From Schmidtea nova (Eukaryota), in contig CM097884.1 in assembly GCA_044892505.1 (NCBI GenBank), forward strand, positions 106,702,001 through 106,766,000: a DNA stretch of 64,000 nucleotides, in the 5' to 3' direction. A program made the position numbers and the translations under genes. Positions 35,716-57,732 of this stretch are shown piece by piece (positions within the stretch are counted from its first letter, which is position 1; each line of letters opens with the position of its first letter). The notes below the pieces were generated by a model that saw only the letters and a program-made list of their open reading frames with translations, did not search any database and had not been told where the DNA came from.

Positions 35716-35869
35716 AAAATTATGTAGATAACTGAATTAATTTATTAATGTACCCCGCCCTACCAAAAGTCTCCAGTCAGACAGTTATTTGCATATTGCA
35801 GTTTATAATGAACAGCACTGGAAACAAATGTCACAAACACACACGAATACTGAATGTCTGTAGTGCTGA

Positions 35870-36703
35870 GACAGTTGGTACTTCGTTTTATTACCTTTCA
35901 TCTGCATAACAAGGTGCACTCGTTTAGGAATTGTACTGACCAATTTTGCCAGGAAATCAGGGGAGATATGTGGCCATTCCTCATACAGATGCGTTTCCAG
36001 TTCGGAGACGTTACGTGTAATGGGAATCCTTTTGCGAACTCTTCTACCAAGGACGTCCCTCAGAAACTCAATAGGATTCAGATCAGGGCTTTGTGGAACC
36101 AAATCCAAAACGTTGATGCTGTGCTGCAGAAAAAATTCCTTCATAATGTGCGAAGTATGGATTGGTGCATTATATTGTTGGAAAATGAGCCTCTCAATTT
36201 CTGGGAGAAAGGGAACAAGCTCATTTTCCAGAATGACATGGTATTCCATTGACGTCATGTGATTACTGCACTTAACTAGAAGGCCAGTTCCACGAGCTGG
36301 GAAAAGACTCCAAAACATGATGGAGCTTCCTCCATATTTCACAGTTGGCTGAATGCAGTCAAGGTGAAATCGTTCTTCTACACGACGCCAGCAGAATTGC
36401 TGTCCATCAGATTTGAAAAGAGTGAAACGTGATTCATCACTCCAAATGACTGAGCGCCATTGTTCAACTGTCCAACTCCTTCTCTCCTGGCACCATTTAA
36501 ACGACTTCGACGAATTCTTTCTGTAATCAAAGGCTTCCTTGCGCAGTATATATCTTAGAAACCATGAAAATGTAATGCGCGACGAATGGTGGACATTCTG
36601 GGATGTACAGGGCCAGTGTTAAATGTGGACACTAACTTGGACAGAGGGAACCTTCGATGAGCCACCACAAGTTGTTTCAGCTGCCGTTGTTTACGGATGC
36701 TCA
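35870..36703 (-). pseudogene. Tc1 transposase, C-terminal part
   Basis: IWSDESRF, TVKYGGSSIMFW, FQQYNAPIH (catalytic D>Y), QSPDLNPIE; stop and frameshift present. Confidence 0.9.
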
Positions 36704-37841
36704 TGTTGAGGTTCCAAATATTTGCTATTTGCAATCTCAACTTGTTATTGGGGTGATTCTTATATAAATATCAAAAGCAAAGTTTGTTTTTCAAAATTTT
36801 ATTAATACAATAAAATTACTTTTTATTTCGTTTACAATTGTCTACGAATAACTCAAATTCTTTATTACACAAATTTAAAAAGAAAAAGTCGTATCAAATC
36901 AATTCTTGCAATTGAACCTATTGGGTGACTGTTATGTAGTGCGTGCTATATTTAATTGTGGATCCAATGTTTCTGATCCGGGTTTTAATAAGTTTTTCAA
37001 GATTGCCTTGAAAACTCAATTTGCGCTAATTTTAAATCTTGATTTTACACTAGATTTTAAAGCTAGGATTTTTTTGGGCCTCTTTACTGATTTTTTCTTT
37101 AGTTTATATAGTAAAATTTGGTATGGATAAATAATTTAATTTCCGGTCTGATATTAAAATATTATTAAATTTAGTTTTCAATTTATTCTATACTCTGCGA
37201 TTAAAATAATTATATTTCAATTTCCGTTCTTGTCGTGATATTAAAATTTTCAATTTATTCTATACTCTGCGATATAATTATATTTTAATTTCCGGTCTTG
37301 TCACGATATCAAAATTTCCAAATTATTTCGTATTCTGTGATATTAAAATATTATTTAGATTTGATTATTTTTAAACAACTGAATTAAATTATTTTATTTA
37401 TTGATCTGTTTGTTTTATATGTATATACAACTCATAAAATAATAAAAGGAATAAAATACACATCAAGATAAAAGGAATAAAATACACATCAAGATACACC
37501 TATTTTATATGTACATGCAAATCATAAACTACACATCAAGATATATTAAAAGAAAACAATTGTTTGTTGAGAAATGTCACAATAATAAAATGTCACAATC
37601 ATATTAATTTTCTTGATTTCTGTGATGGGAGTTGCAATCTTTGTTGAGAAATGTCACAATAATAAAATGTCACAATCATATTAATTTTCTTGATGGGAGT
37701 TGCAATCTTTGTTGTGTGGCTTGGATTGGTATTCTGTGTATTGGGATTCCGCGTAAATGTTGATCCTATAGCTGTTAGGCCCTGTCCTATAATATTTATT
37801 TAGGACAAATGCTTGGATGGGCTTCCCTCGATCATCCAACA
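36704..37841 (-). repeat. 3' LTR of the large Gypsy element
   Basis: TGTTG...CAACA; same length as 49332-50469 with no mismatch seen by eye. PPT GGGAGGAA adjacent (37842-37849). Confidence 0.95.
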
Positions 37842-39651
37842 TTCCTCCCAGGGCCGTCAAGGTAATGTCCTCATTACCTTTTTCACTCAGGACCATTTCA
37901 ATTTCTTTATCCTTTAATTTCATTATTGTTCTCTTGAATCCTTTCTTGATTGCCAGATTTAGGGTATCATCTTCCTCAATTCGTCTTCCGAAATGGGTAC
38001 ATAATTGTTTTTCCGTTATCTCTTTTTGGTCGGCACTTATAATGAAGCTAGGTTCTTCCTCCTCTTCTATTTCCATTTCAATGTCTGGTTCTGGTCCTAA
38101 TTCGTCTTCTGCTTTTATTTTACTCTCCATTTCTTTTGTGAAGTCTTCTTCGTCGTCTTCCTCAACTGAAAAATACTCTTCGTCCGAATCTAAATCGCAT
38201 ATGTCTTCTCTTTCTTTGTATTTTTGTATTAGTTGCGGTTCGTTTTTGATCATTATTTGATTTTCTGGTGGTCCTTCTTCTTTTGTAATCATTAGGTCGT
38301 CATCACCATCTTCATGTATTGTTTCTTCCATATCTGAATTTTCATCCATTATTATACTTTCTTCTTCGCTTTCCTTCAACTCTTCCATACATGATTTTCT
38401 GTTTTGCATCTGGTATAGGTCTCCTTTCATTTCGATATCGTCTGTTATTGGTGTATCACTTTGTAACGATGTTGAATCTGCTGAATTCCATTTTATTATA
38501 GGTTCCCATTTGTCTTCTACTATTCCATATATTACCTTTAATATTGTTGTTGTCTTTCTGGCAGAAAATGGCTCACTTTCTACTAATGCTTAATTCAGTC
38601 TCTTATCTTTGTACCATCTCTTATGGTATTTAATCACTTGGTAAGCTAAGTTAGATAGCTTAATTTTGAGTGGATCCACGTTTTTCACGAATGAGCACAT
38701 AAATTTATCTCCGGCCATTTCTCTCATTCCTGCAATGTTGTCTAGACCAAATGTTAGCATTTTTAATTTATCTATCATATCAAATCCTATGATTATTTTT
38801 CCCCACAACAGCTCTCTAATATCCCATAGAGCCTGGTACTCATCTTCATTTCCGACGATACTTTCTTTATTAACCATTGTTTTTTCTGTGCAGAAGTTTT
38901 TTATCTTCGTTCTTGGGGTTATCTTTTTGTTGTATATAATTTCACCGTTGTATTTTCTTATACATACTTCTACTGGTCGCTTGTTGTCATTTTTATCAAT
39001 TGCAAATTTTGCATCCAAGAACATAATTAGTTGGTGTCTCTCTTCTGTGGATAATTCATTGTGTGTGAAAGAGATTTTTTCATTTATCCAGCTTTGATCG
39101 TACCAAGGTTTTGAAGGGATTGGCGGCATTGATTGGAATGGATTTGATATCAGAGGGATATAGAGAATCTCGATTCCTATGACACACGGTAAGTTGTTCA
39201 TTTGGATTATGAGGTGATTAAAATCGTCTGGCATACTTCTGTTGTTTGTAATTGTTTTGATGATGATTGAACAATTACTTGTTGTGATTATTGGTACTTT
39301 ATGTTGGCAAATTGATACCTCGGTTTTTGTCATGTGGAATAGGATTCTATGTGGTACCTTTTTTCCTTCGATTACCGCTTTGTCGACATTAAGATGTTTT
39401 TCAAATGTGCCGATTAGGTCTTTTAATTTTGTTCGTCGAGCTTCATTAAATTTGATAATGTGTAGTTCTCTTTCTTCAATTTCCACTTTCATATCATTTG
39501 GGATGCATACTTGGTTTGGGAAGCTTCTGATTGTGATTGGATTTCCATCGGTACATATTTTGTTTTGTAGGGTTTTGTAAAAGTTTAGAGGGTGTTTGTT
39601 GATCATAGCCACATAGTTCATAGATCGAGAATAATTTGGCTCTGATTGCAT
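37681..39651 (-). CDS. ORF2 accessory protein (~656 aa if the TAA at 38590 is bypassed): unknown N-domain, degenerate DEDDh exonuclease fold, acidic tract, C-terminus in the 3' LTR
   Basis: The 502-aa and 249-aa ORFs share a frame and are joined by 53 open codons after a single TAA. Motif spacing parallels REX4/ISG20. The likely start is MQSEPNY at 39651. Confidence 0.7.
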
Positions 39652-40030
39652 TGTTAATTGAAGATACAAGAATCGGGATATTGATTGACAATAAAACACT
39701 AAGAATCGGGATATCGACTGATAAGTTAGTAAACGATAAAACACTAAGAATATAGATTGATAATGAGATCGAGATATGATTTTACGACTTGATTTGTGAT
39801 TGGATTGAAAATTGGAACGATTTGATTGGGAGTTGGTTTGATTGTTTTGATTGTGCTGAGGATTTGATGTAAAACTGGCTTTATTGGGTTGTTTGCCAAA
39901 TGGGTGACTTGTTTTTCTAAAAATAAAATGTAAATTTTTATGTTGAGAGCGTATTTCAGGTTTAACCTTATACGCTATTTTATAGATACAGATATATGTG
40001 ATTTTAATATATATTATTGACCAATTTAAC

Positions 40031-40240
40031 TTATACCAATGTAGACCTCGAATATTCACCTGGTATATATTTACCCAAATGGAAATGCCCTGGTACATTT
40101 CTGACCAGTTGGCTCCGATACCGCTGCCTTTTCCATTTGTACTTTTTATAAACTTGTACGCTAGTTATTAAAGCTAAAACTGCTAATGCTATTATTGATG
40201 TTGTGATGACATAAAAAGGCCAATGTGGATTTTTATCTTT
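40031..40240 (-). CDS. In-frame extension of the polyprotein beyond the TAA: TM helix, basic stop-transfer, tail ending STLV
   Basis: *KDKNPHWPFYVITTSIIALAVLALITSVQVYKKYKWKRQRYRSQLVRNVPGHFHLGKYIPGEYSRSTLV*. Confidence 0.7.
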   Translation of the reverse strand, partial: KDKNPHWPFYVITTSIIALAVLALITSVQVYKKYKWKRQRYRSQLVRNVPGHFHLGKYIPGEYSRSTLV

Positions 40241-43200
40241 TTAACGAAATGCTTGTAGTTCCTCTAAGTTATGTATCACTATTGGTCTTCCTTGCCTTAT
40301 TTTGATAGGTTCTTGTTTTTGTTTTTTGGCATTGTATTGTTTTTGGAGTTTGGCTATTCCAGTGCTTGTTGGTATTTCGTTTGTATGTAGTGTGGTATTT
40401 AGTCTATTATTTGATGTCGTTGTTGTGCTTTTTGTTATGTTTTGGTTTTTTATTATATCCTTGGGTAATTGTTCTGTTTTTATCTCTTTGCATCTCCATG
40501 TTGTTGTATCTGTGTTTCTCTGTATGCAGATTTTATATATTGTATTAGGTGTTAGTTTTGTGAAATTAATATAGTTTCCTCTTTCAATTTCGTTGGTTGT
40601 TCTGTCGTCCTTTCCTTTTATCATCTTTGGGTTTTTTCCATTCGTTGTTTGCATGTATAAATCAATTACTCCTCTATTTATGATAAATGCTCTAACTTCG
40701 TTTGTTGATATTTTTATTAATACTCTGTCAAATTCTATTGTTTCGGTTGAGCCAACAATTGTTATGATTGTTAAGAAGATAGCTGATATTATTAGTTTGT
40801 TATGAGATCTTAGATTATACTTGTGAGGTTTATCTATCGTGACCTCGGCTTCCGCCAACTTGCATCTGTTGACATGTACTACTATTGGATCCTCGTTTTT
40901 ATGCTTTTGTAAATGTAAATTCTCATTTATTACTTTTACTACTTCATATGGACCTTTATATGGTCTTGCTAATTTTGTTGTCTTTCCCTTTCCTACTTGT
41001 GGTGACATAAGTCTAACCTTATCACCTACTTTAAAGTTGTGTGGTTTACTATTTTTGTCGTAGTCGGCTTTGTATTGTTCTTGTCTATATTTGACTTTTA
41101 GATTGGCTACTTTATACACTTCTTGCAGTTTTTCCTGCATTAGTGTGACATAATCTGGTGCATCCAAATATTGTGATACTCGAGGTTCAAATATTGTATC
41201 TATTGGTGTTGCTGGTTCTCTTAAAAACATTAAATAATACGGCGAATACCCTGTTGTTTCGTTTGGAGTGATATTATGAATGTATGTGCATTGACTTATG
41301 TATTCGTCCCAATCATTTTGATTTTTTCCTACAAAAACAGCTAGTCTGCTTAGTAATGTCCCATTAAATCTTTCTACTAGTCCATCAGTTTGAGGGTGAT
41401 ACGCTGTTGTGTTGATCTTTTGCATGTTAAAAATATTAGCTACTCGTTTTATTAATTCACTAGTAAAATTTGTTCCTTTATCTGTTAATAATCTTTTGGG
41501 TGTGCCTATCTTGAAAATAATTTTTTCTATAAGCAATTTAGCAACTGTTTCTGCTGTTTCGTCTTTTGTTGGAAATGCTTCTGCCCATCTAGTAAAATAA
41601 TCACTAAATACTAGTATATGTTTATTCCCATTAATTGTAGTAGGTAATTTACATAGAAAATCCATTGCACATAGTTCCATTGGTGATGTTGTTGCTGGAA
41701 TGGGGTGTAACGGCGCTTTTGTTTTTGTACCTGTATTTTTTCTTGTTGCACATATTGTACACGCGTTACACCATCTCTTAACATCTTTCTTTAGTTCTTC
41801 CCAGTAATATTTTTGTAATAATCTACTTGCTGTCTTTCTAGATGATAAGTGACCTCCTAATGCTCCATCGTGATATTGTAGTAGGAGTATTTGTCTTAAT
41901 TTCTGAGGTACTACTATTAATTGCTTACCGTTGAAATCTTCTATTACTACTAATTTCTTTGATATTTTATATTTTGAATTGTTTTCTTTTCTGATTTCAT
42001 TCCTTATTCTATTGATCTCTGGGTCTTTCATCTGTTCCTCATATATATCTATTGGCTTTTCTGCTACTAGTGCAAATATTTCAAGTGCTCCTAATTCTGG
42101 TATTCTTGATAGTGCATCTGCGTTTTTATTTATTCTACCTGGTTTATATATAATTTTTAGGTGCATGTCTTGTATTTTCATTGCCCATTTAAGTAATCTA
42201 CTTGATGTATCTTTATGTTTCCATAAGCCTTCTAATGGTTTATGGTCTGTTCTTATTATCACTTCAGTTCCGTAGATGTATGGTTTGAATTGTTTTAGGG
42301 CAAATACTATTGCGTAACATTCTTTTTCTATTGTTGAATACCTCAGCTGTGCTCCTTTTAATGTTTTACTGGCATATGCTATTACGTAATCTTTCCCTTT
42401 CTCTTCTTCTTGGCCTAATACTGCTCCTACGGCTTTCCCGCTGGCATCTGTCATTACTATAAATTGTTTTTCGAAATTTGGGTATCTTAACACTGGTGCT
42501 GTTATCAATCTTTCTTTTAGTTTGTCGAATGCTTCTTGATGTTCTTTTGTCCATTTCTTTTGTATCTTGTTAACTTTATTGTTAATTTCTTGTACTATTA
42601 ACACGTCTTTGCATTCTCCTTTTGTTTTAATTCCCTTTGTTAGTTCTATTATAGGTGTTGCTATCTTTGCATAATCTTGTATGAATTTACGATAGTATCC
42701 TGTTAAACCTAAAAACCCTTGTACCTGTTGTACTGTTTTTGGTATTGGGAATTTCTTTACAACTTCTATTTTTTCTGGATTTGGTTTTATCCCTTCTACT
42801 GTGACTATATGCCCTAAAAATAGTGCCGAAGACTCTGCCCACTTACATTTGGTTGGTTTAATTTTTATCCTTGCTTTTCTTAGTCTCTCAAGTACGTTTG
42901 TTATATCTTTTAGATGTTCCTCGAATGTCTTTGATGATATTAATATGTCATCCATGTAAACTGCGCAGTGTTGTACATTTACTAATATTGTGTTCATTAG
43001 ACGTTGAAATGTGGCTGGCGCATTAGTTAATCCGAAGGGTAATCGTGTGTACTCATATAAACCATCCTCAATAACAAATGCTGTTTTTTCTGCGTCCCCT
43101 TCTTCCATTTGAATTTGCATATACCCCTTATTCGCATCAATGACTGAAAAATACTTAGCATCCCTAAGTTTATCATATTGCTCTTGTGCTTTTGGGAATG

Positions 43201-46200
43201 GATATGAATCTTTTACTGTTACATCATTTAATTTACGATAGTCAATGCACATTCTTATTTCTCCGTCTTTCTTTTTGACGGGTACAATGGGTGATGCCCA
43301 CTGTGAAAAACTTTGTTTTATTACACCTGCGTCTTTTAATTCTTTAATTTGTCGCTTTATCTCCTCTCTTAGTTTGTATGGTACGCTATATGGTCTTTGT
43401 TTTATTGGTCTTGCATTGCCCGTATCTATTACATGTTTGATTATGTCAGTATCTCCTAAATCAAATTCATGTTTTGCAAAAACATCGCTGTATTCATCTA
43501 TTAGTGTCTGTAATTGTGCTTGTTGTGTTATTGTTAGGTATTTATTATTGATTTTCACTTTGTCGTATGATTTTATACTATTTGTCTTACTAGGTTCGAC
43601 CACTCTTTTGCCGTTATCATTTATCACACTTGTCTCGCTGACTTCATACGTTTTCTCTAATTTGCCTTTGAATAGTTTTCCCAATTTTGTGCCTTTGTGT
43701 ATTTTTATATTACATTTTTCATAATTCGCTATTCTTAATGGGATTATTCCCTTTTTTGGAATTACGCATTCATTAGTTAACATTATATTTTGTGTAATTG
43801 CCGTTTCTGGCTCGAAAATAAAAGTGTCCTCACTTTTGACGTTAACTTTTATGGGGATTATATGATCACACTCATATTCTAGTTCGAATGCTTCTAATGC
43901 AACAACTTCCGTGAACTTGGACTTATGTTTGATAGCTTTTCTTTTAATCGTGTTATCCGTTAAGTCTATGATGCAGTTATTCAGCTTGTTGAGTATATCG
44001 ATCCCTAGTATACATATGCTATTGCATTCTTGTACTACTTTAAATATGTGGTGTATTACTTGTTCTGATGTTTCAACTACTAATTCAATATCTCCTTTTA
44101 GTGGAATGTAGTGTGCTGATAGTGTTACTACTTTATCCGTTGTTTTCATAATATTTCTCTTTTCACCATCTGTAAGTTGATCTTCCCTAATTAGGGACGT
44201 TGCTGCTCCAGTATCTACTAGTGCATTTATGATTATATTGTTTATAATTATTTTAAGTCTTGGCCTTGCTTCGTTTGCTGTCTCTAATTGCTCCATCATT
44301 TCGACTTCCAAGCTATAACAACCATATATTTTTTTGGGTTCACAGTAACAATTCTTACTTTCTCTAGGAATTTTAATCTCTATATTTTCTTGTAACTCTT
44401 TTAATTGTTCTCTTTGGTTTTCATATAGTCCTTGTTGTGGTGCATTTCCTTCATGTGATATATGCGTTTTAACTATTTCCTCATTGTTTTCATCATCTAT
44501 CAATATTTGCCTTTCTTCATTCCTTTGGATTTTTATTAAACGTATTTCTTTATCATGTTTTGCCGTAATCAGGTATTTGGCTACAAACGGGCATAAACAT
44601 GCTAGTAATTTATATGAATTTCCGAATACTTGTTTCAGCTGTCGTAGTGATACTAAAGAAGAACAAACCATTTTTAGTAAAGCAACCGTATAATAAATTC
44701 CTAAAATTGTAGAGAACATGTTTCCAAGGACTGCAAAATATCCCCATATACTATATAATACTTTGTATGCTACTTTTTTGAAATACTCTTTTGATAACAA
44801 CACGTCAAAATTGTAATTTCCTCCGTAACTTCCTTCGATAATTTTGTTTACCATTATTGACAGTATTCTTTCTTTTTCGTTTGAAAATAACATGTGTTTT
44901 CTTGCACTTTCTATAGCTTCTCTCGTATATATGCCATTGCTATATATATCGTTGATTTCTTTAAACTCCAATCTTTTTTCAAGCTCTATGAGTTCTAATT
45001 TGAGTGGTTTCATCGCCTCTTTCCTATCTGACATAGATATCCACATTTCGTCATTTATTTTGTATAATGGATCCAATAAATTAGTGCATTTTTCTATTTT
45101 TCTTGGTACATATGTTTTTTCTGTTAGTATTCTAGTAATTGGTTGAAGGTATACCCTTTCTCCTTTGTATATTACTGGTAACTCATTTGTGCACTGATTG
45201 TTTGTTGCCAATGATACACTAACAGGTTTGCATTGAAATGTCTGTATCACTTCTCCTACTATCCTGGCAAATGTTCCTTCTTCTGAGAAGATTATTGGTG
45301 CCATCAAATCTGGGTTTGTTACCGCGACTGCCATTTTTGTCCTTAATATTTCTCTGTTGAGTTTGCAATCGCTCATGATTGTTGATTGATATACTTTATC
45401 TAATTGCACTAGTTGATTATGATAGAAAAAATCTATTTTATTGTTGAAATATGATGCGAGTTTGACGTCGAATTTATTTACTTTTTGTTTTGCATCTTTG
45501 ACTTCTTCTTTGCTTATGTATATCCCTTCATAATTAGTTTGTATTATTTCCTTACCACATTTTACACTTTTCCTTTTACTAACAAACCTCATTGCTTCGT
45601 TTTCAGATTCTGACATATATATTGTTGGTGTATCTTTTTCTTGTACAATTGTTGTTTTCCTTTTTTGATCTCTCACCCTTTTTGAGTCTACTTCTGTGAA
45701 CTGTTTTCCCTTGATTTCCCTAAATTTTAATGATTTTAATTTTGTTAACTGACAATCATATTTATCTATTTTGTATATTAGCATTGATTCTCCTGTATCG
45801 CAATAAGATTCTTCTAATGTACAAAATTTGTATATCATCATTTTCTTTGAGCTGCTGTCGAATGATGCTTTGAACTTTCTCAGTTCTACCATGTAGTGTC
45901 TCCTTACTACAACATTACTCAGTTTTTCGCCCCATATTGTATATTCTCCTCCTTCACAATATCCTCCTTTTGATGTCCATCCCACGACATTTACATCTTG
46001 TCTCATTTTTGCCCCTATCCTTGCTTCTAATTCTATTCCATTATGACCGCTATATTTTACTTTTTTTGTTTTAAATGCATCTTCACACTCTATTGGTGAC
46101 AATATTACTGCTTCGGGTGTCCACGTAGGTTTTAACACTGTTCTTGCCCCAACATGACATATATATGCTTCCTCCTGATACTTTACTATGCACTCTTTGG

Positions 46201-49090
46201 CCTCTGTATGAATAAAGTCTGATTCTTGATAAACATGGAATATTTGAGGCTCTGACATGATTAATTTAGTTGGATTTGCTTCAGGGCAATTTTCAACATC
46301 TAACAGTGAGTATTTTTGTCCCCACTTTGGATTTTGACAATCATATGCTACCATTGCATTGCCTCCCTTGATTAAATCTAATAACAAAGTGATAATGACT
46401 ATTACTATGGAGGTTATCGATTTACTCTCTGTCTTTGGTTTTACTGTTGCTTTCTTTATTAATTGTTTTATTACCTCATCTGTATCACTCTCTTTATTCG
46501 TCGTATCTTTATCATATAATACTTTCCATCCTCCTTTCTTTTTTATCCATGGTATTGCCTCTACTTTCAATCTTTTAAACATTATTGTTGCTACTTTTTC
46601 TAATTGCTCTTTTGGATTTTCCTTTATGAGCTTTTTATATCTTGCGGCCAAGTATGCCATGGCCGTTATTATTTTATCTTTATCTATCCCTGTATTAAAC
46701 ATGATTTTTAACACTGTTTTTTCATTTGCTTCCTCTGTAGCTAGTTCTTTAGTATCCTTTTTAATTAACATCATCCTTTCAGTTATATTTTCAATAAGTA
46801 CTGTTGGCTTTGTTTCTGGAAATAGCTTAATATTCATTGCTTTTATTACTTCTTTTATTTTGTTTACGTCATTATTATCGTCTTGATACTCTGGTTGTTC
46901 ATGTTTATGTTGATTTGCAATCTCTCTTAATCGTTCTGCTGTCTTCCTATTCTCCGATTTTTCTATTATTTCTGATTTTCGAGGTCTTCCTCTACCTCGT
47001 TTTGATATTTCTGCATCTTTTGTTTTTGCTTCCTCAGCTATTCTTTCTATTGTTTCTTGTAAGTTACTATACTTTTCATCTATAGGTTTAAATATAATTT
47101 CTTCATCCATTACTGATTTCTTTGTTTCGCTAGGTGATTTATCCCATAGCCTAAATAATCTATCAAAATCGTTTTCTTCATTTATACTCAACTCAACCGA
47201 CGGTACTGGCGTCATTATTTCATTGATCATTTGTTTTTCTACTGTGGCTACCACAATATTATCACTTACTGGGTTTATCCCATAATCGATTAAGTACTCG
47301 TCACTTAATAATTCTATTCCGTTAAAATATAATTTTATTACATCTTTCTCTCCTATGGTTCCTGGCCATTTGGCTCTTACCATTCGTTTTAATTTGCTCA
47401 CTTTAGTGCAAGTATGCATCTTTTGTTTAATACTAAAAAAATAATTATCATTTGATTCAATCGTTACATTTAGTGTTTCATGCAATTTTTCATTTTTTCT
47501 TATATATTCTCCATAACATTTCAACATCTCTTTTATTTCTATTTCTAATTCAAATACTCTCGTTACATTTTGTCTCTTTACCATCATTGGTATCAAATTT
47601 CTAAGCTTGTCTAATTCAATCCCATTAACTTGTATTTTATTGATTATTCTCAGTGTTTCGTTATCCTCAAATGGTTGTTTATACAATATCTCTTTAAATT
47701 CTTCTATCAATTCTTTTTGTTTATTTTCTTCTGTGAGAAATATTTCATCTGCTTCTCTAATTTCTTTTAACTCATCATTATCGATATCTACTTCATTTGT
47801 AAAAGTACTAAATTCATTTATAGACATTTCAAGCTTTCTCTCAATAAGTCTTCCATATTGCGTTTTAAATTCTTTTAATTCTTCTCTTAATATGTTTATT
47901 TCTTTATTTGCTGATTCAAGCTCAGCGCTATTTACCTGCTTTATCTCAGGCTCATTTTTAAATCTTACTCTTATCGGTGAATCTGCTCGTGGTTTATTAT
48001 ATACCTTTGCTAGGTGACCATACTTTTGGCAATTGTAACATTTTATTTGTCCATTAAAATTCACTTTATCCCTACCATCATTATTATAAGTATTTCGCCT
48101 CACTGGGCTATCTTGTCTATTTCTCGAATTATCTCTGTATCTATTATCTCTTCTATTATATTCGAAGCGACTGTCTCTATTATTTCTATTATATCCACTG
48201 TAACTGTTATAACCAGAGCGATTATCTCTAAAATTATTATCTCTGTCAAAACGGTTGTCTCTAAAACTATCTCTATTATTATTCCCTTTATAGTTATCTT
48301 TAAAATTATCTCTATTTCTATTATCAAAATTTTTATTTCCTGGACTGTTAAACCTTCCCTTGTTTTCAGGTGATTGGCTTCTATTAGGACTAAATTTTCT
48401 TCTATTATTAACAAAATTCAAATATAATTGTTTCATTTCTTCCGAAGGGATACTATCATCTTTACTTTTCAACTCAGGTTTTACCTCAAGTTGCTTTTCA
48501 ATTTCTACAGCGTCTATCTCTGGTCTAAATCGATCTCTTTGTATTGCTTCTATGCGTTTTGCTTTTTGTACTAATTCATTTAAGTCTTCATATTCAATCG
48601 TAATTAATGCTTTGTATAAATATTTTTGGATTCCGTTCCAAAACTGATCCTCGATTAACCTACTAGTGTGATCTCCTGCACCAAATGCCTTTTTTGCTAA
48701 TTCTGTTATCGTGTATATATATTCACCTACTGATTCTCTTGCTCCTTGGTATCTACTTCTAAATTTTTGAACATTTATTTTTTGTAAGTCTCTATCTATT
48801 ACTATTTCTTTTCTAAGGTTTGTAACTAACTCTTGATAATTAATGCCTTTACATGCCAAATTATTGTATGCTTGTAATGCGTATCCTTTTAAGTATAATG
48901 GGATTCGTTGTTTTAATTCATTTGTTTTCCATCCGCAAGCCTCTGCGTATTGTGCGATTTCGGCAAAAAAGTCGTCGAACTTTTCAGGGTCTCCTTTATA
49001 TGATTCTATTGGTAGTGTTTTTATAAAATTATGACTGTTTCCTATGTTATCGTTATTACTGTTGTTACTACTGCTTGTACTATTACTCAT
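40241..49090 (-). CDS. 2949-aa polyprotein: Gag - Ubl - AT-hook - Bcl-2-like - envelope glycoprotein - PR - RT - RH - IN - FN3
   Basis: Gag N-terminus (YKGDPEKFDDFF..GW), CYNC..GH, LYFNG..L.DYGI, RGRGRPRK, WIKKKGGW, AYDC..Cys-rich..TM, LVDTGA, YMDD, TDAS, HHCC, DDE, GPY, LTPNTIYKICI. Confidence 0.95.
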   Translation of the reverse strand: MSNSTSSSNNSNNDNIGNSHNFIKTLPIESYKGDPEKFDDFFAEIAQYAEACGWKTNELKQRIPLYLKGYALQAYNNLACKGINYQELVTNLRKEIVIDRDLQKINVQKFRSRYQGARESVGEYIYTITELAKKAFGAGDHTSRLIEDQFWNGIQKYLYKALITIEYEDLNELVQKAKRIEAIQRDRFRPEIDAVEIEKQLEVKPELKSKDDSIPSEEMKQLYLNFVNNRRKFSPNRSQSPENKGRFNSPGNKNFDNRNRDNFKDNYKGNNNRDSFRDNRFDRDNNFRDNRSGYNSYSGYNRNNRDSRFEYNRRDNRYRDNSRNRQDSPVRRNTYNNDGRDKVNFNGQIKCYNCQKYGHLAKVYNKPRADSPIRVRFKNEPEIKQVNSAELESANKEINILREELKEFKTQYGRLIERKLEMSINEFSTFTNEVDIDNDELKEIREADEIFLTEENKQKELIEEFKEILYKQPFEDNETLRIINKIQVNGIELDKLRNLIPMMVKRQNVTRVFELEIEIKEMLKCYGEYIRKNEKLHETLNVTIESNDNYFFSIKQKMHTCTKVSKLKRMVRAKWPGTIGEKDVIKLYFNGIELLSDEYLIDYGINPVSDNIVVATVEKQMINEIMTPVPSVELSINEENDFDRLFRLWDKSPSETKKSVMDEEIIFKPIDEKYSNLQETIERIAEEAKTKDAEISKRGRGRPRKSEIIEKSENRKTAERLREIANQHKHEQPEYQDDNNDVNKIKEVIKAMNIKLFPETKPTVLIENITERMMLIKKDTKELATEEANEKTVLKIMFNTGIDKDKIITAMAYLAARYKKLIKENPKEQLEKVATIMFKRLKVEAIPWIKKKGGWKVLYDKDTTNKESDTDEVIKQLIKKATVKPKTESKSITSIVIVIITLLLDLIKGGNAMVAYDCQNPKWGQKYSLLDVENCPEANPTKLIMSEPQIFHVYQESDFIHTEAKECIVKYQEEAYICHVGARTVLKPTWTPEAVILSPIECEDAFKTKKVKYSGHNGIELEARIGAKMRQDVNVVGWTSKGGYCEGGEYTIWGEKLSNVVVRRHYMVELRKFKASFDSSSKKMMIYKFCTLEESYCDTGESMLIYKIDKYDCQLTKLKSLKFREIKGKQFTEVDSKRVRDQKRKTTIVQEKDTPTIYMSESENEAMRFVSKRKSVKCGKEIIQTNYEGIYISKEEVKDAKQKVNKFDVKLASYFNNKIDFFYHNQLVQLDKVYQSTIMSDCKLNREILRTKMAVAVTNPDLMAPIIFSEEGTFARIVGEVIQTFQCKPVSVSLATNNQCTNELPVIYKGERVYLQPITRILTEKTYVPRKIEKCTNLLDPLYKINDEMWISMSDRKEAMKPLKLELIELEKRLEFKEINDIYSNGIYTREAIESARKHMLFSNEKERILSIMVNKIIEGSYGGNYNFDVLLSKEYFKKVAYKVLYSIWGYFAVLGNMFSTILGIYYTVALLKMVCSSLVSLRQLKQVFGNSYKLLACLCPFVAKYLITAKHDKEIRLIKIQRNEERQILIDDENNEEIVKTHISHEGNAPQQGLYENQREQLKELQENIEIKIPRESKNCYCEPKKIYGCYSLEVEMMEQLETANEARPRLKIIINNIIINALVDTGAATSLIREDQLTDGEKRNIMKTTDKVVTLSAHYIPLKGDIELVVETSEQVIHHIFKVVQECNSICILGIDILNKLNNCIIDLTDNTIKRKAIKHKSKFTEVVALEAFELEYECDHIIPIKVNVKSEDTFIFEPETAITQNIMLTNECVIPKKGIIPLRIANYEKCNIKIHKGTKLGKLFKGKLEKTYEVSETSVINDNGKRVVEPSKTNSIKSYDKVKINNKYLTITQQAQLQTLIDEYSDVFAKHEFDLGDTDIIKHVIDTGNARPIKQRPYSVPYKLREEIKRQIKELKDAGVIKQSFSQWASPIVPVKKKDGEIRMCIDYRKLNDVTVKDSYPFPKAQEQYDKLRDAKYFSVIDANKGYMQIQMEEGDAEKTAFVIEDGLYEYTRLPFGLTNAPATFQRLMNTILVNVQHCAVYMDDILISSKTFEEHLKDITNVLERLRKARIKIKPTKCKWAESSALFLGHIVTVEGIKPNPEKIEVVKKFPIPKTVQQVQGFLGLTGYYRKFIQDYAKIATPIIELTKGIKTKGECKDVLIVQEINNKVNKIQKKWTKEHQEAFDKLKERLITAPVLRYPNFEKQFIVMTDASGKAVGAVLGQEEEKGKDYVIAYASKTLKGAQLRYSTIEKECYAIVFALKQFKPYIYGTEVIIRTDHKPLEGLWKHKDTSSRLLKWAMKIQDMHLKIIYKPGRINKNADALSRIPELGALEIFALVAEKPIDIYEEQMKDPEINRIRNEIRKENNSKYKISKKLVVIEDFNGKQLIVVPQKLRQILLLQYHDGALGGHLSSRKTASRLLQKYYWEELKKDVKRWCNACTICATRKNTGTKTKAPLHPIPATTSPMELCAMDFLCKLPTTINGNKHILVFSDYFTRWAEAFPTKDETAETVAKLLIEKIIFKIGTPKRLLTDKGTNFTSELIKRVANIFNMQKINTTAYHPQTDGLVERFNGTLLSRLAVFVGKNQNDWDEYISQCTYIHNITPNETTGYSPYYLMFLREPATPIDTIFEPRVSQYLDAPDYVTLMQEKLQEVYKVANLKVKYRQEQYKADYDKNSKPHNFKVGDKVRLMSPQVGKGKTTKLARPYKGPYEVVKVINENLHLQKHKNEDPIVVHVNRCKLAEAEVTIDKPHKYNLRSHNKLIISAIFLTIITIVGSTETIEFDRVLIKISTNEVRAFIINRGVIDLYMQTTNGKNPKMIKGKDDRTTNEIERGNYINFTKLTPNTIYKICIQRNTDTTTWRCKEIKTEQLPKDIIKNQNITKSTTTTSNNRLNTTLHTNEIPTSTGIAKLQKQYNAKKQKQEPIKIRQGRPIVIHNLEELQAFR

Positions 49091-49310
49091 GTTGTAGATT
49101 GTTCTATTTCTTAATTGATGTATTATTTCAGGTGCTGTATCTATGTTTATTTTATTAGCTTTTTAATGGTTTTAGTTCTTTATATGTTTGTATATCTTTG
49201 AATTTCTACTTTGGTCAATAATATTTAGATAAATATATTTTCCCGATATATATTACAATATCCCTCTGATCGCAATTCCTATCCCCCAATTGATATTATA
49301 ATATTTTATT

Positions 49311-49329
49311 GTCCCGGTTCGCGGCACCA
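49311..49329 (-). promoter_or_regulatory. Primer binding site TGGTGCCGCGAACCGGGAC
   Basis: 2 nt inside the 5' LTR boundary and complementary to a CCA-ended tRNA 3' end (Phe- or His-like; identity uncertain). Confidence 0.85.
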
Positions 49330-49331
49330 AA

Positions 49332-50469
49332 TGTTGAGGTTCCAAATATTTGCTATTTGCAATCTCAACTTGTTATTGGGGTGATTCTTATATAAATATC
49401 AAAAGCAAAGTTTGTTTTTCAAAATTTTATTAATACAATAAAATTACTTTTTATTTCGTTTACAATTGTCTACGAATAACTCAAATTCTTTATTACACAA
49501 ATTTAAAAAGAAAAAGTCGTATCAAATCAATTCTTGCAATTGAACCTATTGGGTGACTGTTATGTAGTGCGTGCTATATTTAATTGTGGATCCAATGTTT
49601 CTGATCCGGGTTTTAATAAGTTTTTCAAGATTGCCTTGAAAACTCAATTTGCGCTAATTTTAAATCTTGATTTTACACTAGATTTTAAAGCTAGGATTTT
49701 TTTGGGCCTCTTTACTGATTTTTTCTTTAGTTTATATAGTAAAATTTGGTATGGATAAATAATTTAATTTCCGGTCTGATATTAAAATATTATTAAATTT
49801 AGTTTTCAATTTATTCTATACTCTGCGATTAAAATAATTATATTTCAATTTCCGTTCTTGTCGTGATATTAAAATTTTCAATTTATTCTATACTCTGCGA
49901 TATAATTATATTTTAATTTCCGGTCTTGTCACGATATCAAAATTTCCAAATTATTTCGTATTCTGTGATATTAAAATATTATTTAGATTTGATTATTTTT
50001 AAACAACTGAATTAAATTATTTTATTTATTGATCTGTTTGTTTTATATGTATATACAACTCATAAAATAATAAAAGGAATAAAATACACATCAAGATAAA
50101 AGGAATAAAATACACATCAAGATACACCTATTTTATATGTACATGCAAATCATAAACTACACATCAAGATATATTAAAAGAAAACAATTGTTTGTTGAGA
50201 AATGTCACAATAATAAAATGTCACAATCATATTAATTTTCTTGATTTCTGTGATGGGAGTTGCAATCTTTGTTGAGAAATGTCACAATAATAAAATGTCA
50301 CAATCATATTAATTTTCTTGATGGGAGTTGCAATCTTTGTTGTGTGGCTTGGATTGGTATTCTGTGTATTGGGATTCCGCGTAAATGTTGATCCTATAGC
50401 TGTTAGGCCCTGTCCTATAATATTTATTTAGGACAAATGCTTGGATGGGCTTCCCTCGATCATCCAACA
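49332..50469 (-). repeat. 5' LTR of the large Gypsy element
   Basis: Matches the 3' LTR and is followed by the PBS. Confidence 0.95.
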
Positions 50470-50473
50470 CTCA

Positions 50474-50663
50474 GAAGTTTAGGGCGGCCTGAACGTTGCT
50501 TGTTGACATGTGTCTGCTCCTGGCGGTACTTCCTTAGGAAGTAGTTAATAGTTCCTTTGGGATGGCCAGTCAATGCAGCAGTTTTACTCTGACTTTTTCC
50601 ACAAAAGTAACATCCGTAAATAATACTTTTCTGAAAGTTTGTAAGCTTTCTCCGAGTAGCCAT
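50474..50663 (-). pseudogene. Tc1 transposase N-terminal HTH part
   Basis: MATRRKLT...RSGRPKLLS continues in frame with IRKQRQLKQL on the other side of the insertion. Confidence 0.9.
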
Positions 50664-51011
50664 ATTCTAAGAAAATGAAAATCCTTCATTAACATGACTC
50701 ACTGTTATCACGGTTGTGTGTCTGATGTGAGTAGTCATATTCTAAGAAAGTGACAATCCTTCATTAACATGACTCACTGTTATCACTGTTGTGTCTGGTG
50801 TGAGGGCGTGAGGGCGTGCGTGCGTACATGTGCGCATGTTGAAGGTGTTAGTGACATTTGTTCCCATTGCTGTTCATATTTGCACTGCAGACGTTCATTT
50901 TAAACTGCAATATGTAAATAACTGCCTGACTGGAGACTTTTGTTAGGCCGGGGTATATTGTTTCTTGATTTGTAATTGGAGTGAATTAATGTATTCGTGA
51001 AGTTATTAGGA

Positions 51012-51849: not shown

Positions 51850-52651
51850 TGTTGGGGTTTATTAAAAATTAGTAAAATACAAAAATAAAAATCATAAAAA
51901 CTTAGTAAAAGTCAATAAAGTATAAAATTTTCAAAATTAATTAAAATTTAGGAAAAATTCGAAAACAGAGAATTAGAGGGGGAAATTGGTATGGGTGGAT
52001 GCCGAATATTGAAACGAATCCAAAAATAATAAAACAAAGTGAATGGGGGGTCCCCAGAAAGAAATAATTAAAATATTAATTAAGAATTAATTGGCTAATG
52101 GAAGCCCGAGCTAATGGGAAACCCGAGACAACGGAGAACCTGAAGAGTGTGGGAAACCGGGACAAGCAATATGACAAGTAATAATTCCTGAGAAAATTAA
52201 CTTTGGAGGAGACCCGGAGAGTAACCGACAGATGGAAAATTAAAATGTCAAATCGGAAACTACCATTTGACAGCTGCAGCGAAGTGGGAAACCAATCATC
52301 AGAAGCAGTATAAAAGGGAAAGCCAAATACTAAAGCTTGCCATAATGGTCGAAGCAAAAGTAAGTGAATTCAGCAAGTGTGGAGTTAAGAGCGATATTTG
52401 AAAAGTTCAAAGCCAAATTTATCCTTCTAGCGTACCAGAAAGGGAGATCTTCTTTGGGGAGACTTATCCCTACGCGAAGTCGGAGAAGCAGTGATAAAAC
52501 TTATTGTGAAATTTTAAAGAGACTTGGTGTGTCAAAAAGTGTGATTGTTACAAATAAATCCTTCTGTGTTGGGTTATTTTATTGAATCAAATTAAAAGAA
52601 CACCGAGCAGTCAGACTAACAGCACCGACTAAACATCCCAAATACCCAACA
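51850..52651 (+). mobile_element. Solo LTR (family A, copy 2)
   Basis: TGTTGGG...CCCAACA, flanks CAAC/TAAC, shared internal motifs. Confidence 0.8.
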
Positions 52652-53201
52652 TAACCAAAAGCTTAAAGAATTTTTTAATCTAGTCATAAAATTATGAAAA
52701 TTATTGTTATAAAAAATAAATATTGCATTGATTGTCAGATATCTTACGGAATTCTAATTTTAGTCACAGTTTCACACTAATTTAGACAAAAATAGAGAAA
52801 CTTGATTTCTATTGGTTGCGATTTATTATCGTAAGTAATATTCTATATTATATCGTATTTATTTATAATCTATTTTTAGAAGTTTGATTTCCCCCGTAAA
52901 TAAATTGAATTATCGAGAAAATTTGTCTGGATTTTCATTAGATTAAATAAATAGTTCTTTTTATAAACCTTAAGTATCTATAATAATAATTATTGATAGA
53001 TTCGGTTTTCGTTTCAGAGTGAATTTGGAATTTAGCTACTATTATGGATTTTTCAAAAAAAATCTTCACGGATTATGTAATTATTTCCGATTTTGGATAA
53101 AGTAATATATTTTAATTAAGTTTTATGTTATAAATTTATTCTTTGGTTTTCTTGTAGTAATAAACCCAAAGTAGATTTTTCTATTAAAAATCTTATTATA
53201 T

Positions 53202-54105
53202 AGTTACAATCTCTTCATAATTCATAACAATTTAACAAATTAAAATATATATTTTTAAAACAGTGCCAACTTGCTAATATTTAAACAAGGTTAATTATTG
53301 AACATCACTCTCCTCTTCATTTTCTTTGAATCTCTTCAGCCATTCAATTCTTCTTGATTTGATTGAGTTTGGAAATTGTAATTCAACTTGTCTTGGTGAT
53401 AAGAATTTTAAAATTTTGTAAGGTCCTTCATATTGGATTCCCTCCTTCTTTCGTCTATGTGGTTCCGAGCGAACTAATACTTTCTCTCCCACCGTGAAAA
53501 CTCGAGTACCCCGGTGTTCTAAATCTCTATTTTGCATTGTTGTAGCTGCTTTCTCTAGATTAGTTTTTGTTTTATCCACGATTTCTTCTTTGCTTTTTTG
53601 TATATGTCCTAATCTAGAATATAAATTAATCTTCCGACCATATACAATTTCAAAAGGTGAGAAATTTGTTGAGTTTTGTATTGTAGCATTCAAACTAAAT
53701 TCAATCTTCGGTAACAATCTGCACCAATTATTTTCTGTTCTAATCTCTGTCAATGATGTTGCCAACATGTCCCGAACTGTTCTTATGATTCGTTCTGCTA
53801 AACCATTTGATTGATGTTGATATGGTGAACTGAATTCTTGTTTTATACCAAATTTCTCCATCCAATCACGAAACATCGATCCTTCAAAAATTCTTCCTCT
53901 ATCTGTAAGAATGCTTTCTGGTCTACCAAAACGATATATCCAATTATTTAAAATGACATTCAAAATTGTTGATTCATCCTGCGTACTTGTTGCTGATAAG
54001 CTGACCAATTTACTAAAACGATCTATTATCACTATCACATATTTCTTACTTGCTTTTGTCTCCATATATGCAATATCCACTACTATCTGTTCTAAAAACC
54101 GTTCT
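53202..54105 (-). mobile_element. 5'-truncated relative of the compact Gypsy: integrase plus ~108-bp 3' LTR (53202-53309)
   Basis: Integrase similar to 23722-24897 (FLEQIV.D.AYME, QEFSSPYQHQSNGLAER), PPT AAGAGGAG, AGT...ACT LTR ends. Confidence 0.8.
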
Positions 54106-54118
54106 CCTGTACTACAGC

Positions 54119-54404
54119 CAACAAAATCACCAACATTTTTAATCAAACAGATTTGCCTATCCGTCCAACGTTCATAACCTCCGCACCGTTAAAATCACAA
54201 CTCCGAAAGCCACCAATTTCCAACATCTGCAAACATAAATGTCTTTGTCGTTCCACAACCCGATGCTTTTGCTTTTCCAAAAATATAGTATATAAACTTT
54301 CTTGCCAAAAATGTGACGCTACTTACATAGGAGAAACACATAGAACTTTTCGCACCCGACTTAATGAACACACTAAAATCAAAACCAGTTTGTGCACAAA
54401 ATAA
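54119..54404 (+). mobile_element. Penelope-like element fragment (GIY-YIG endonuclease)
   Basis: C..KNIVYKLSCQKCDATYIGETHRTFRTRLNEH; near-identical copy at 63760-64000. Confidence 0.88.
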
Positions 54405-54419
54405 AAAGAAAACTAATTA

Positions 54420-55990
54420 TTAGTGGCATATTTTGAATTCTTTTAGGCACATATTTTGTGTACCACTGATGTACAACAATGTACGTCCTAAAGTACTTCA
54501 GCGTTTAATTGGGTATTTGAATGAAGTTTGAGTGTTTTTAGATGACCAAAAACAAATTCAATATAATGAATTATCGAATGTGAGTAGATATAAAGATTAA
54601 TGTCCATCTTTGATTTCTGGTGAAACAGTTGATGTGATATCTGATATGATCAAAGCATTTGGAGCTAAGTTACAAATATTAAAACGTGTTATAATAAGTA
54701 GTAATTTTAAGTATTTTTCAAACCTAAAAAAGGCCATGAAAGGTCTTGAAATTAACGAAAAGCTGGAAGAGGTAAAAATAACAAAATAGTTTGCAAGTAT
54801 TTTAAAATTAGTGTTGGGGTTTGTCATAAGTGACTTAAAAATAAAGTAAAAATTTAAAAAAATTAAATAGAAATTAATAAAATCACAAAAATTACAAAAA
54901 TCTATAAATTAATTAAAATACAACATTAATTAAAAAATTAAGAAAATTGAAAATCAACATATGGCGGGGGAAATTGGTATGAGTGTGTGCCGATTGATGA
55001 GACGAATTCAAATACATAAAATTAAAATCGATGGAGGGTCCCCAGAAAGAAATAATTAAAATATTAAAATATTATTTAAGAATTAATTGGCTATTGGAAA
55101 GCCCGAGCTAACTTAAAACCCGAGCGATGAGGAGAACCCGAGGTGACAAGTTAATTGCCTTGAAAATTAATGTTCCAGACAGAAGGCAAATGGCAATTAG
55201 CATCTAAATTGTCTCAGAATGTAAATTGGAATTTCGAAATTAAAAATTGACGGTTTAATGGCCTTAAAAGGGAAATTTACCATTTGAACGAAAGAAAACA
55301 AATAAATCAACTCTCAAAAGTTTAAATAAAAAGAGAGGCAGAATAAGCAAAGCGTCAGTTACGGTCGAAGCAAAGAAAAGCATCTTGATTAAAGGAAAGT
55401 GTGAAAAGTAAAAAGAGCAACGAGGTCAGTGATACTCTAATTTAAATTCATTTGTTAACACGCGCACCAGAAAGGGACATCTGCCGTTGGGAGACATATC
55501 CCTGGGCATTTGCGAAAAGTCTGAAAAGCAGTTAAATAATTTGTAAAGACAATTGAGTATTAGATTGATTATTAATAAAGGTTATGTGTTGGGCCTTGTT
55601 CATTGATTTTAATAAGAACTCCGAGAAGTCAGATAAAAACCGACTTAACCAAATAAATACCCAACATTAGTAATAGAACAGTTTTTGACAAGATTTAGAT
55701 AGTTCGACAATTTGAAGAATTACAAAATTTATTATTTATTCGGGCACTTATAGAAATGAAAACTTAAATTTAGCGATGCTTGAATGAATGGATTTGGATG
55801 ATTTTGAAATGCAATTGGTCTATTTTCAATCACATTCAGTATGAAGACAAATGTTTTTGGACTTGAAACATTTTGGAAAATATTGAACGAGATAAATTTC
55901 TGGAGTAACTTAAAAGGGTAGTGAAACAAAGATACTGACAACTTGAAAATCCATGCCAGAAAATTTTGGATGAAAAAATAGCAATGACTA
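54420..55990 (+). pseudogene. hAT (Charlie/GTF2IRD2-like) transposase remnant split by a solo LTR
   Basis: KVLQRL..YLNEV, RQFEEL, FWKNIERDKF and LKIHARK-like peptides on both sides of the LTR. Confidence 0.4.
54812..55666 (+). mobile_element. Solo LTR (family A, copy 3)
   Basis: TGTTGGG...CCCAACA with perfect 4-bp TSD TTAG. Confidence 0.9.
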
Positions 55991-56400: not shown

Positions 56401-57732
56401 ATATTTTACGTTTTTCGATGTTTCATTTCTACAGATTCGGGTGGTTGAGGCACAATAACTTCATTTTCTTCATTTCTAAAAATATTTTTTTTATTAAATC
56501 TTTTAATATAATAGTAAATTACATTTCTCATTGATCCTCTCCAATAAATGGTATTATTGATTTCGACAAAGGTTCTGAAATATCTTCATAAATCATGATT
56601 TTTTTTATATTTGTAAATCCCTTAATTAAAGATTGCCACTTAAATTATGTTCATGTGTTTGTATTTTTTATTATAAGATTTTTGTGTGTTGTGTAAGTGT
56701 GTTTTTTGACCTAATTTATCTTTCTTCTTTTCTGTAGTATGGCCCCGTAATTTATGACTGTGCTTTTCATCTTTGTCCTTATCTACAGTAGGTATGTATA
56801 TTTTTTTATATAATTTAATTTGTTATTATAGAATCCTTAATTGTTGCCTGCCTGGCTCTTAATTTATGACTTTTGGTGTATTTGGTATACAAAAAAAATT
56901 TCACTAATAATAAAAAATTCTTTAATTTAATTTACAGAATAAAAATAATAAATTTATTTTGTATATATTTTTAAAGGCACGAAATAGAGCTAGACAAGCA
57001 TAATATTTTGGTAATTTCTGATAGACGCACGTAAAAAGGTTCCCTTCCACTATAATATATACCAATATATATACTATAATATATACTTCCATAATTTCAT
57101 CAAAATTAAAATTTCCGCAGCTGATTTGTACTAGTACTCATGACCAAGTTATATGGTAGCATTACAATATAATGTCTATTATTTTAATTCTATGCTTTTT
57201 TCATGCACAATTTAAAAAAATACATTGCCTACATAATTAAATTTTCAATTACAAAAATCAAAATTATCCTCTTTCAAAATTTCAAACGAGTAATAATATA
57301 TTAATAATTTATAGTAATAATATTTGATAAACACTAAGAAATTTCTCAGATGCTACCTTTGATAATCTTAGCAACAAAATTTTATCAAACTCTATTTTTC
57401 TATGGAATTACTCATGATTTATTATTACATAATTTATTTGAACATAATTCGAAAATTAAAATTTCGAAACTACCAATTTTATCGATTTAAATTTTAATCT
57501 GATACAGGCCTAATTATCTTCAAAATGAGTCATTACCAATTACAAATTGCAATTCATACACCATTTCCTATATAGATAATGCATGAAACAATGTAATAAT
57601 AACGACATGTGCGCACACATACACACAATGCACGTCAGGATGCACAGGATTGGTATTCCTTTTTTGTTTGTTTCCGTTTTATTTTTTTTAATAATTTTGT
57701 ATAAAGAATAACTTAGTATAATTTTAGCACAA

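Follow-up and report, generated by a model that had tools for sequence, protein, structure and literature searches.

The stretch analyzed here, referred to as the window, comprises 64 kb of the Schmidtea nova assembly GCA_044892505.1 (contig CM097884.1, positions 106,702,001 to 106,766,000; source genome 1.25 Gb, AT-rich). At positions 36704-50469, on the minus strand, it carries a Ty3/gypsy long terminal repeat (LTR) element of 13,766 bp. We propose, with a probability of about 0.6, that this is a recent, defective copy of a GAG-ENV-POL element, the polyprotein of which is threaded through the membrane of the endoplasmic reticulum (ER) and the enveloped particles of which likely pass between cells. 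The first open reading frame (ORF1) encodes, in this order, Gag, a zinc knuckle, a coiled region, a ubiquitin-like (Ubl) domain, an AT-hook, a Bcl-2-like domain, a hydrophobic segment, an envelope protein (Env), a transmembrane helix, protease (PR), reverse transcriptase (RT), RNase H (RH), integrase (IN), a second hydrophobic segment, an FN3-like domain, and a Ser/Thr stalk; without a stop codon private to this copy, the polyprotein would measure about 3,020 amino acids. A second frame, ORF2, follows. Judged by its sequence, the element is a compact Burro-like errantivirus of a published lineage; its layout is not new, and it is not Burro itself.

Ends, classification, and insertion site

Both LTRs measure 1,138 bp, have TG...CA ends, and show no mismatch between them. 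The element also has a primer-binding site (PBS) of 18 nucleotides for tRNA-Phe(GAA), a polypurine tract (PPT) of 8 purines, and the short target site duplication (TSD) CTCA; the presence of all four features had been recorded in an earlier note on this DNA and was confirmed here. Pol has the order PR-RT-RH-IN, with the catalytic motifs and a GPY/F motif. Both its ends and its Pol thus place the element among the Ty3/gypsy elements (Metaviridae). In an RT tree calculated without named Metaviridae references, the element family grouped with other polyproteins that carry Env in frame (93/88 support, not starred). The primer tRNA is the one encoded in a tandem array of tRNA-Phe(GAA) genes with a 240-bp unit (G000:C1 from 566906065), and the tRNA-Phe(GAA) end has 2,591 matches genome-wide.

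The element resides in a Tc1-like DNA transposon. In six of six other copies of this transposon, the flanks are directly joined over a single 4-bp site, and the insertion is therefore clean. A duplicate of the same insertion, including its flank, lies about 82 kb upstream of the window copy (G000:C3:106656211-106689166); the left flank is 100% and the interior 99.9% identical to the window copy. Flank and interior are offset by distances that differ by 18.2 kb, and the match of the interior breaks off on both sides, which suggests later nested insertions. Alternatively, the segmental duplicate could be an assembly duplication.

Copies, recombination, and selection

The earlier note had considered the element young, and had proposed a copy collection, an LTR comparison, and an analysis of the ratio of nonsynonymous to synonymous substitutions (dN/dS) for each domain. 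These analyses were run. When the genome was searched with the Ubl-Bcl-2 stretch, the best 40 of 600 candidates were scored and all 40 were 99 to 100% identical, corresponding to at least 40 near-identical copies. We compared 30 of the 39 other top-scoring matches, and the counts of copies given below refer to this set. Both LTR ends were found in 17 of them, with no mismatch between the LTRs in 11, one mismatch in 4, two in one, and five in another. A TSD of its own, 4 bp long, borders 16 of these 17 copies, and the remaining copy belongs to a tandem pair; a tandem pair of element copies with a common LTR was seen at G000:C2:234307945-234335433. The identical LTRs, the individual TSDs, and the number of near-identical copies bear out that the family is young and multicopy.

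A search of the genome with ORF2 gave 115 scored matches, of which 60 were 82 to 100% and 55 were 65 to 73% identical; we interpret these identity classes as two subfamilies, A and B. Two sister families, C and D, have an ORF1 of about 3,400 amino acids and an RT about 50% identical to that of A. The window copy is a mosaic that differs from its siblings by 0.2 to 1% in some kilobases and by 4 to 9% in others. The divergent patch has 18 full-length matches at 98 to 100% identity, 16 of them dispersed away from the locus, and the mosaic therefore reflects recombination rather than a chimera. Families C and D have nearly identical RTs, with 50 to 86% likeness in other modules, which is another sign of recombination.

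Wherever selection on the modules could be measured, it was purifying. The dN/dS values for the comparison of A with B are 0.06 for the capsid, 0.03 for Env, 0.04 to 0.06 for Pol, 0.11 for the second signal-like segment with FN3, and 0.35 for the C-terminal helix and tail. For the ORF2 N-terminal domain and exonuclease, the proportion of nonsynonymous differences (pN) is 0.22 versus a saturated synonymous proportion (pS) of 0.77 to 0.82. Because A and B differ too little in Ubl and Bcl-2, the constraint on these two modules was derived from C and D, between which dN/dS is 0.05 to 0.27 for Ubl, with a pN of 0.26 versus a pS of 0.75 for Bcl-2.

The ORF1 polyprotein

The earlier note had recognized ubiquitin-like, AT-hook, Bcl-2-like, viral glycoprotein, and FN3 modules, and these assignments hold, those of the Bcl-2-like and FN3 modules provisionally, on the following evidence. 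(i) Env matches the Pfam family Monjiviricetes_fusion with an E value of 1e-87, and its cysteines are conserved across 35 aligned proteins. (ii) A family profile of the Ubl domain gave an E value of 0.003 with ISG15 as the top match. (iii) The AT-hook stands as a motif only, present in 30 of 30 copies. (iv) A family profile of the Bcl-2-like domain matched the Protein Data Bank (PDB) at an E value of 7e-4. (v) For the FN3-like domain, Atlas scores were 0.87 to 0.90 and all hits having a family were fn3; the profile search of the PDB gave an E value of 0.004, and six of six matches were FN3 proteins, the search of the PDB by sequence with a single FN3 query returning noise only. The Ubl, Bcl-2, and FN3 matches are thus individually weak and hold with family profiles. 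Pfam gave no match for the Ubl domain, FN3 domain, or ORF2 of the window family, and a protein search with ORF1 residues 480-1600 among proteins of near length retrieved nothing at an E value of 0.001. Families C and D have two ubiquitin-like domains and several zinc knuckles (L113:5332-6140 and L122:5575-6380), and a motif scan found no AT-hook match in them.

As in other GAG-ENV-POL elements with a gB-type Env, the Env lies between Gag and Pol, is homologous to chuvirus/gB proteins, has conserved cysteines, and is bordered by two hydrophobic segments; the postintegrase domain is bordered by hydrophobic segments as well. These segments predict a topology in which Env and FN3 lie in the lumen, whereas Gag-Ubl-Bcl-2 and Pol lie in the cytosol, and in which the cuts would be made by the signal peptidase of the host and the protease of the element. 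Such a polyprotein topology is comparable to that of an alphavirus or flavivirus.

FN3 and the stalk contain three sequons. The signal-like segment behind the integrase and the C-terminal helix are shared by families C and D and by three of five outside polyproteins (P0004, P0008, and P0154); in P0018 the signal is present and the later helices are weak, and P0020 ends earlier. The motif LxPxTxYxI is invariant in the element family and in P0004, P0008, and P0154 (five of five aligned rows). The longer postintegrase ectodomain of C and D gave no match to that of the window family. Between integrase and the second signal, at about 40800-40820 of the window (minus strand), all 30 copies have a YxLR(S/N) motif, which is reminiscent of the nucleosome-binding sequence of foamy virus Gag; it is also found in C, D, and three outside proteins, and C and D have it close to the beginning of Gag, too. 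P0008, a close relative, is filed as a protein of a Flavobacteriaceae metagenome-assembled genome and probably stems from animal DNA that was binned with bacterial sequences.

ORF2

A profile of ORF2 from five families matched ISG20L2 with an E value of 1e-10. Families C, D, and E and three outside proteins retain the residues of Exo I, II, and III. In subfamilies A and B, only the first Asp of the acidic ligands aligns, and the other Exo ligands and the general-base His are lost. Since ORF2 is nevertheless constrained, these losses point to a conserved pseudo-nuclease in the window family. The structure model of the family E ORF2, with a predicted local distance difference test score (pLDDT) of 83, shows a cupin-like domain (cupin match, E value of 1e-5) followed by an ISG20/Pan2-like nuclease with a template modeling score of 0.80 to ISG20. 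The model for the window family is poor (mean pLDDT of 44, with the N-terminal domain under 50). A test of the link between its N-terminal domain and the cupin gave a pairwise E value of 0.13 and a profile score of 15.8, which is within the range of 30 shuffles (maximum, 18.6); because this control failed, a cupin in the window family is suggested by position only. A profile of the N-terminal domain had no match in the PDB by sequence, and a protein search with the window family ORF2 among proteins of near length gave nothing at an E value of 0.01. A cyclic-nucleotide-binding fold had been considered for this domain and was dropped, as the fold search gave cupins. The last 161 nucleotides of ORF2 lie inside the 3' LTR. 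In P0018, residues of about 125-295 resemble, by eye, a DEDD-like nuclease, which is located before Env and not in a separate ORF.

Stops private to the window copy and other defects

From its first ATG, ORF1 of the window copy has 2,949 codons (8.85 kb). The earlier note had described this frame as unbroken, which we revise: it ends at a private stop (40241-40243), and the 70 codons by which it is thereby shortened encode, in all 30 other copies, a transmembrane helix and tail. The segmental duplicate lacks this stop, which is therefore either younger than the duplication or a base-call error. Programmed read-through was rejected, as the stop occurs in none of the other copies (0/30). The separate exonuclease-fold ORF of the same note stands with respect to the fold, which the profiles confirm, but not as an ORF, since a second private stop cuts it. 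At this second position, 20 of the 30 copies were alignable, the other 10 being too diverged there, and in all 20 a sense codon at this position joins the exonuclease and acidic frames into one ORF2. The Gag zinc knuckle is incomplete in the window copy and in the nearby segmental duplicate and complete in 28 of 30 copies. As its sequence reads, the window copy would be defective, in that neither an anchored FN3 protein nor a full ORF2 could be made from it.

Relation to published elements

The earlier note did not recognize the combination and order of modules, and named a match to a described family with the same architecture as grounds for refutation. Such a family largely exists: for planarian Burro, Gag, a Ubi/SUMO-like domain, a BCL2-like domain, an in-frame Env, and PR-RT-RH-IN are described in one polyprotein (PMC6431247). 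In addition, GAG-ENV-POL elements of the gB type have been catalogued in flatworms by Chary and Hayashi, including six in Schmidtea mediterranea (PMC13524379).

Among the latter, Smed_errantivirus_3 is about 71% identical to the element in Env domains I-II (175/246, counted by hand from supplementary file 2; PMC13524379), the published Smed families being 31 to 38% apart in Env, with 64% for families 1 and 2. The two elements share an Env in frame between Gag and Pol and are multicopy. The main text of PMC13524379 does not mention Bcl, ubiquitin, fibronectin, or exonuclease and lists no tRNA or LTR for the Smed elements. Smed_errantivirus_1 resembles, by eye, sister family C. Burro1-4/GYPSM1 likewise encode one polyprotein with Gag, CCHC knuckles, Ubi2/SUMO-like and BCL2-like domains, and an in-frame Env matching mononegavirus glycoproteins, followed by PR-RT-RH-IN, and have accessory ORFs (PMC6431247). 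Burro is set apart from the element by the size and modules of its description: it exceeds 30 kb and encodes 4,873 amino acids (PMC6431247), compared to 13.8 kb and about 3,020 amino acids, and its MATH, BIR, ankyrin, and dUTPase modules had no Pfam match in the element at an E value of 0.1. Conversely, section 7 of PMC6431247 mentions neither an FN3 membrane protein nor an exonuclease ORF for Burro.

Like the window element, the Ty3/gypsy LTR elements Vesta and Juno of bdelloid rotifers encode a 3'-5' exonuclease of the DEDD family in an ORF of its own on the 3' side, but their ORF3 is RNase D-like (DEDDy), replaces env, and keeps the catalytic residues (PMC5408684). The element, in contrast, has, alongside Env, an ISG20/Pan2-like DEDDh fold, which comes after a cupin in the sister families and is degenerate in the window family. 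Chuvirus-like glycoproteins are also found in mosquito BEL/Pao elements such as Anakin. The mosquito elements have the same glycoprotein class on a BEL/Pao backbone instead of a Ty3/gypsy Pol (PMC13524379). The consulted parts of PMC8532177 and PMC11410931 gave no added domain detail on such elements. For neither the postintegrase membrane protein (signal, FN3, stalk, and transmembrane helix) nor the cupin/ISG20 ORF2 in such elements did we find a published description, although the primary Burro papers, their supplements, or Repbase may contain one.

Proposed biology and alternative explanations

From the anatomy, copies, and selection described above, we infer the following membrane threading, entry, and cargo functions. 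The first hydrophobic segment would direct Env into the lumen and, after the signal-peptidase cut, stay behind as a tail anchor of Gag-Ubl-Bcl-2. The Env helix would bring the chain back to the cytosolic side, and there the protease would release PR, RT-RH, and IN. The second hydrophobic segment would start a type I membrane protein consisting of FN3, stalk, transmembrane helix, and tail, which is likely an attachment protein or accessory partner of the fusogen. Reverse transcription would be primed by tRNA-Phe, and the integrase would make the 4-bp duplications. The likely role of the Bcl-2-like domain is to prevent the death of the cell that produces the particles or is invaded by them. ORF2 probably acts on the RNA of the element or counteracts RNA surveillance by the host; it would do so as a nuclease in the sister families and as a noncatalytic RNA-binding or decoy protein in the window family. 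Both glycoproteins would be present on the budding particles, which would then enter other cells through class III fusion.

A number of points weigh against this proposal. (i) Particles and entry are predicted from the sequence, and transmission by Env is unshown for most such elements, as stated in PMC13524379. (ii) A scan of the Env ectodomain found no N-glycosylation sequon and no furin site, and the Env profile had no glycoprotein match in the PDB by sequence. (iii) Signal cleavage is predicted from hydropathy alone, the FN3 assignment is based on a short motif and Atlas scores of at most 0.90, and the Bcl-2-like domain matches Pfam with an E value of 2e-5, which is under the curated cut-off, with BH1 NWGR not kept. 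(iv) The compared copies were selected by high identity, so that the sample leans toward young copies, and between A and B the synonymous/nonsynonymous differences of 2/2 in Ubl and 0/3 in Bcl-2 are too few to determine selection.

The absence of sequons and of a furin site from Env would also suit an intracellular retrotransposon, in which Env and FN3 serve as ER assembly scaffolds and particles stay in the cell; the single polyprotein inherently tethers Gag and Pol to membranes, and passage between cells is unneeded in planarians, the germ line of which is supplied by their stem cells. We nevertheless regard this explanation as unlikely, as an Env ectodomain of 540 residues with conserved cysteines and a dN/dS of 0.03 exceeds what a scaffold needs, and the second ectodomain is constrained as well. 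Less probable still is a mutualism of host and element in which the Bcl-2-like, Ubl, ORF2, and FN3 cargo is kept mainly for the benefit of stem cells. Its precedent is Burro1, in which a RING-BIR module reportedly protects stem cells from apoptosis (PMC13465017, with reference to Lee et al. 2026). All modules of the window family, however, sit in young, dispersed, recombining copies, and no stand-alone domesticated copy was seen, although none was searched for; such a benefit would be compatible with passage between cells. An assembly chimera or a decayed element with chance motif matches, as the mosaic window copy and the individually weak matches of several domains might suggest, is highly improbable and already largely refuted by the recurrence of the divergent patch in dispersed full-length matches, the presence of the same layout in 30 copies as well as in sister families whose RT is about 50% identical, the purifying selection, and the clean empty sites.

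Beyond enveloped particles passing between cells, we raise tentatively, and hold to be rather less likely than its opposite, that a two-glycoprotein entry system, composed of a gB fusogen and an FN3 attachment protein cut from the Pol tail, was built independently and joined by an ISG20-like anti-surveillance nuclease turned pseudo-enzyme, which would make the element an infectious, still-spreading flatworm analogue of a retrovirus. The surprise is modest, because the core architecture is known, and the compact Burro-like family shows the cargo core shared with Burro, namely, Ubl, Bcl-2-like, and Env. Fusogens of class III and gB type often need partner proteins, as in herpesviruses, and the conserved FN3 membrane protein behind the integrase is a concrete candidate for such a partner. 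Why retroelements carry DEDD nucleases is left as an open point in PMC5408684, and the intact and degenerate ISG20-like nucleases in one genome offer a natural comparison for it. As the family is young and abundant in a group of animals tractable by RNA interference, cell-to-cell movement of env-carrying elements is testable outside Drosophila.

Feature coordinates and other sequences in the window

The features of the element are compiled in Table 1.

Table 1. Features of the Ty3/gypsy element and its insertion site, in window coordinates
Feature	Position	Strand	Basis or remark
Tc1-like DNA transposon harboring the element	35740..50959	.	Inverted ends 35747-35813 and 50893-50959; DDE_3
TSD CTCA, left copy	36700..36703	.	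Empty sites in 6/6 other Tc1-like copies
3' LTR, with internal 68-77-bp repeats	36704..37841	-	Identical to 5' LTR
3' part of ORF2: exonuclease end, acidic stretch, small C-terminal region	37681..38589	-	Reading frames, copies
PPT, 8 purines adjoining the 3' LTR	37842..37849	-	Also present in subfamily B
ISG20/REX4-like DEDDh exonuclease fold, catalytic residues degenerate	38467..39027	-	Profile, alignment
Private in-frame stop inside exonuclease fold	38590..38592	-	Sense in 20/20 alignable copies
ORF2 N-terminal beta-rich domain from likely start codon	39082..39651	-	Cupin fold in sister families; by position only in the window family
Low-complexity open leader from upstream ATG, coding status unsure	39652..40098	-	pN 0.39, pS 0.56
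Transmembrane helix, basic stop-transfer, cytoplasmic tail, in ORF1 frame behind private stop	40031..40240	-	Sequence, hydropathy
Private in-frame stop shortening ORF1 by 70 codons	40241..40243	-	Sense in 30/30 other copies
Ser/Thr-rich stalk	40244..40471	-	Sequence
FN3-like ectodomain, LxPxTxYxI motif	40472..40744	-	Atlas, family profile
Second internal signal-like hydrophobic segment, after integrase	40745..40792	-	Hydropathy
Integrase, HHCC, D-D-E, and GPY motifs	40853..41911	-	Pfam and motif
RNase H	42167..42553	-	Pfam and motif
Reverse transcriptase (YMDD)	42803..43495	-	Pfam and motif
Aspartic protease (DTG)	43979..44272	-	Pfam and motif
Env transmembrane helix	44663..44719	-	Hydropathy
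Env ectodomain, chuvirus/gB-type fusion protein family, 14 Cys	44753..46354	-	Pfam, alignment
First internal signal-like hydrophobic segment, before Env	46355..46417	-	Hydropathy
Bcl-2-like domain, BH2-type WxxxxGGW kept, BH1 NWGR not	46508..46885	-	Pfam, family profile
AT-hook motif	46973..47002	-	Sequence motif only; 30/30 copies
Ubiquitin-like domain, without terminal di-glycine	47228..47530	-	Family profile
Gag zinc knuckle, incomplete	47999..48040	-	Pfam scan and copy motif check
Gag capsid region from first ATG	48458..49090	-	28% to sister-family Gag, E 1e-34; sister hits Retrotrans_gag
PBS, 18 nt, tRNA-Phe(GAA)	49312..49329	-	Match to host tRNA-Phe(GAA)
5' LTR	49332..50469	-	LTR comparison
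TSD CTCA, right copy	50470..50473	.	Empty sites in 6/6 other Tc1-like copies

Elsewhere in the window, a second, frameshifted Gypsy element at 23722-28156 (minus strand) comprises PR-RT-RH, IN, and an upstream frame; its RT is 42% identical to that of the main element, and the Pfam scan gave no Env match for it. Several repeats of 74 to 90% identity, about 3 kb apart, at 51955-55676 surround an integrase frame (53295-54188) and are probably an old, internally deleted LTR element. A run of N at 63430-63584 lies outside the element. Further frames encode a DDE_1 (pogo-type) transposase (20566-21483, minus strand) and a galactosyltransferase (57712-58776, plus strand; PF01762, E value of 2e-37), the latter likely a host gene.

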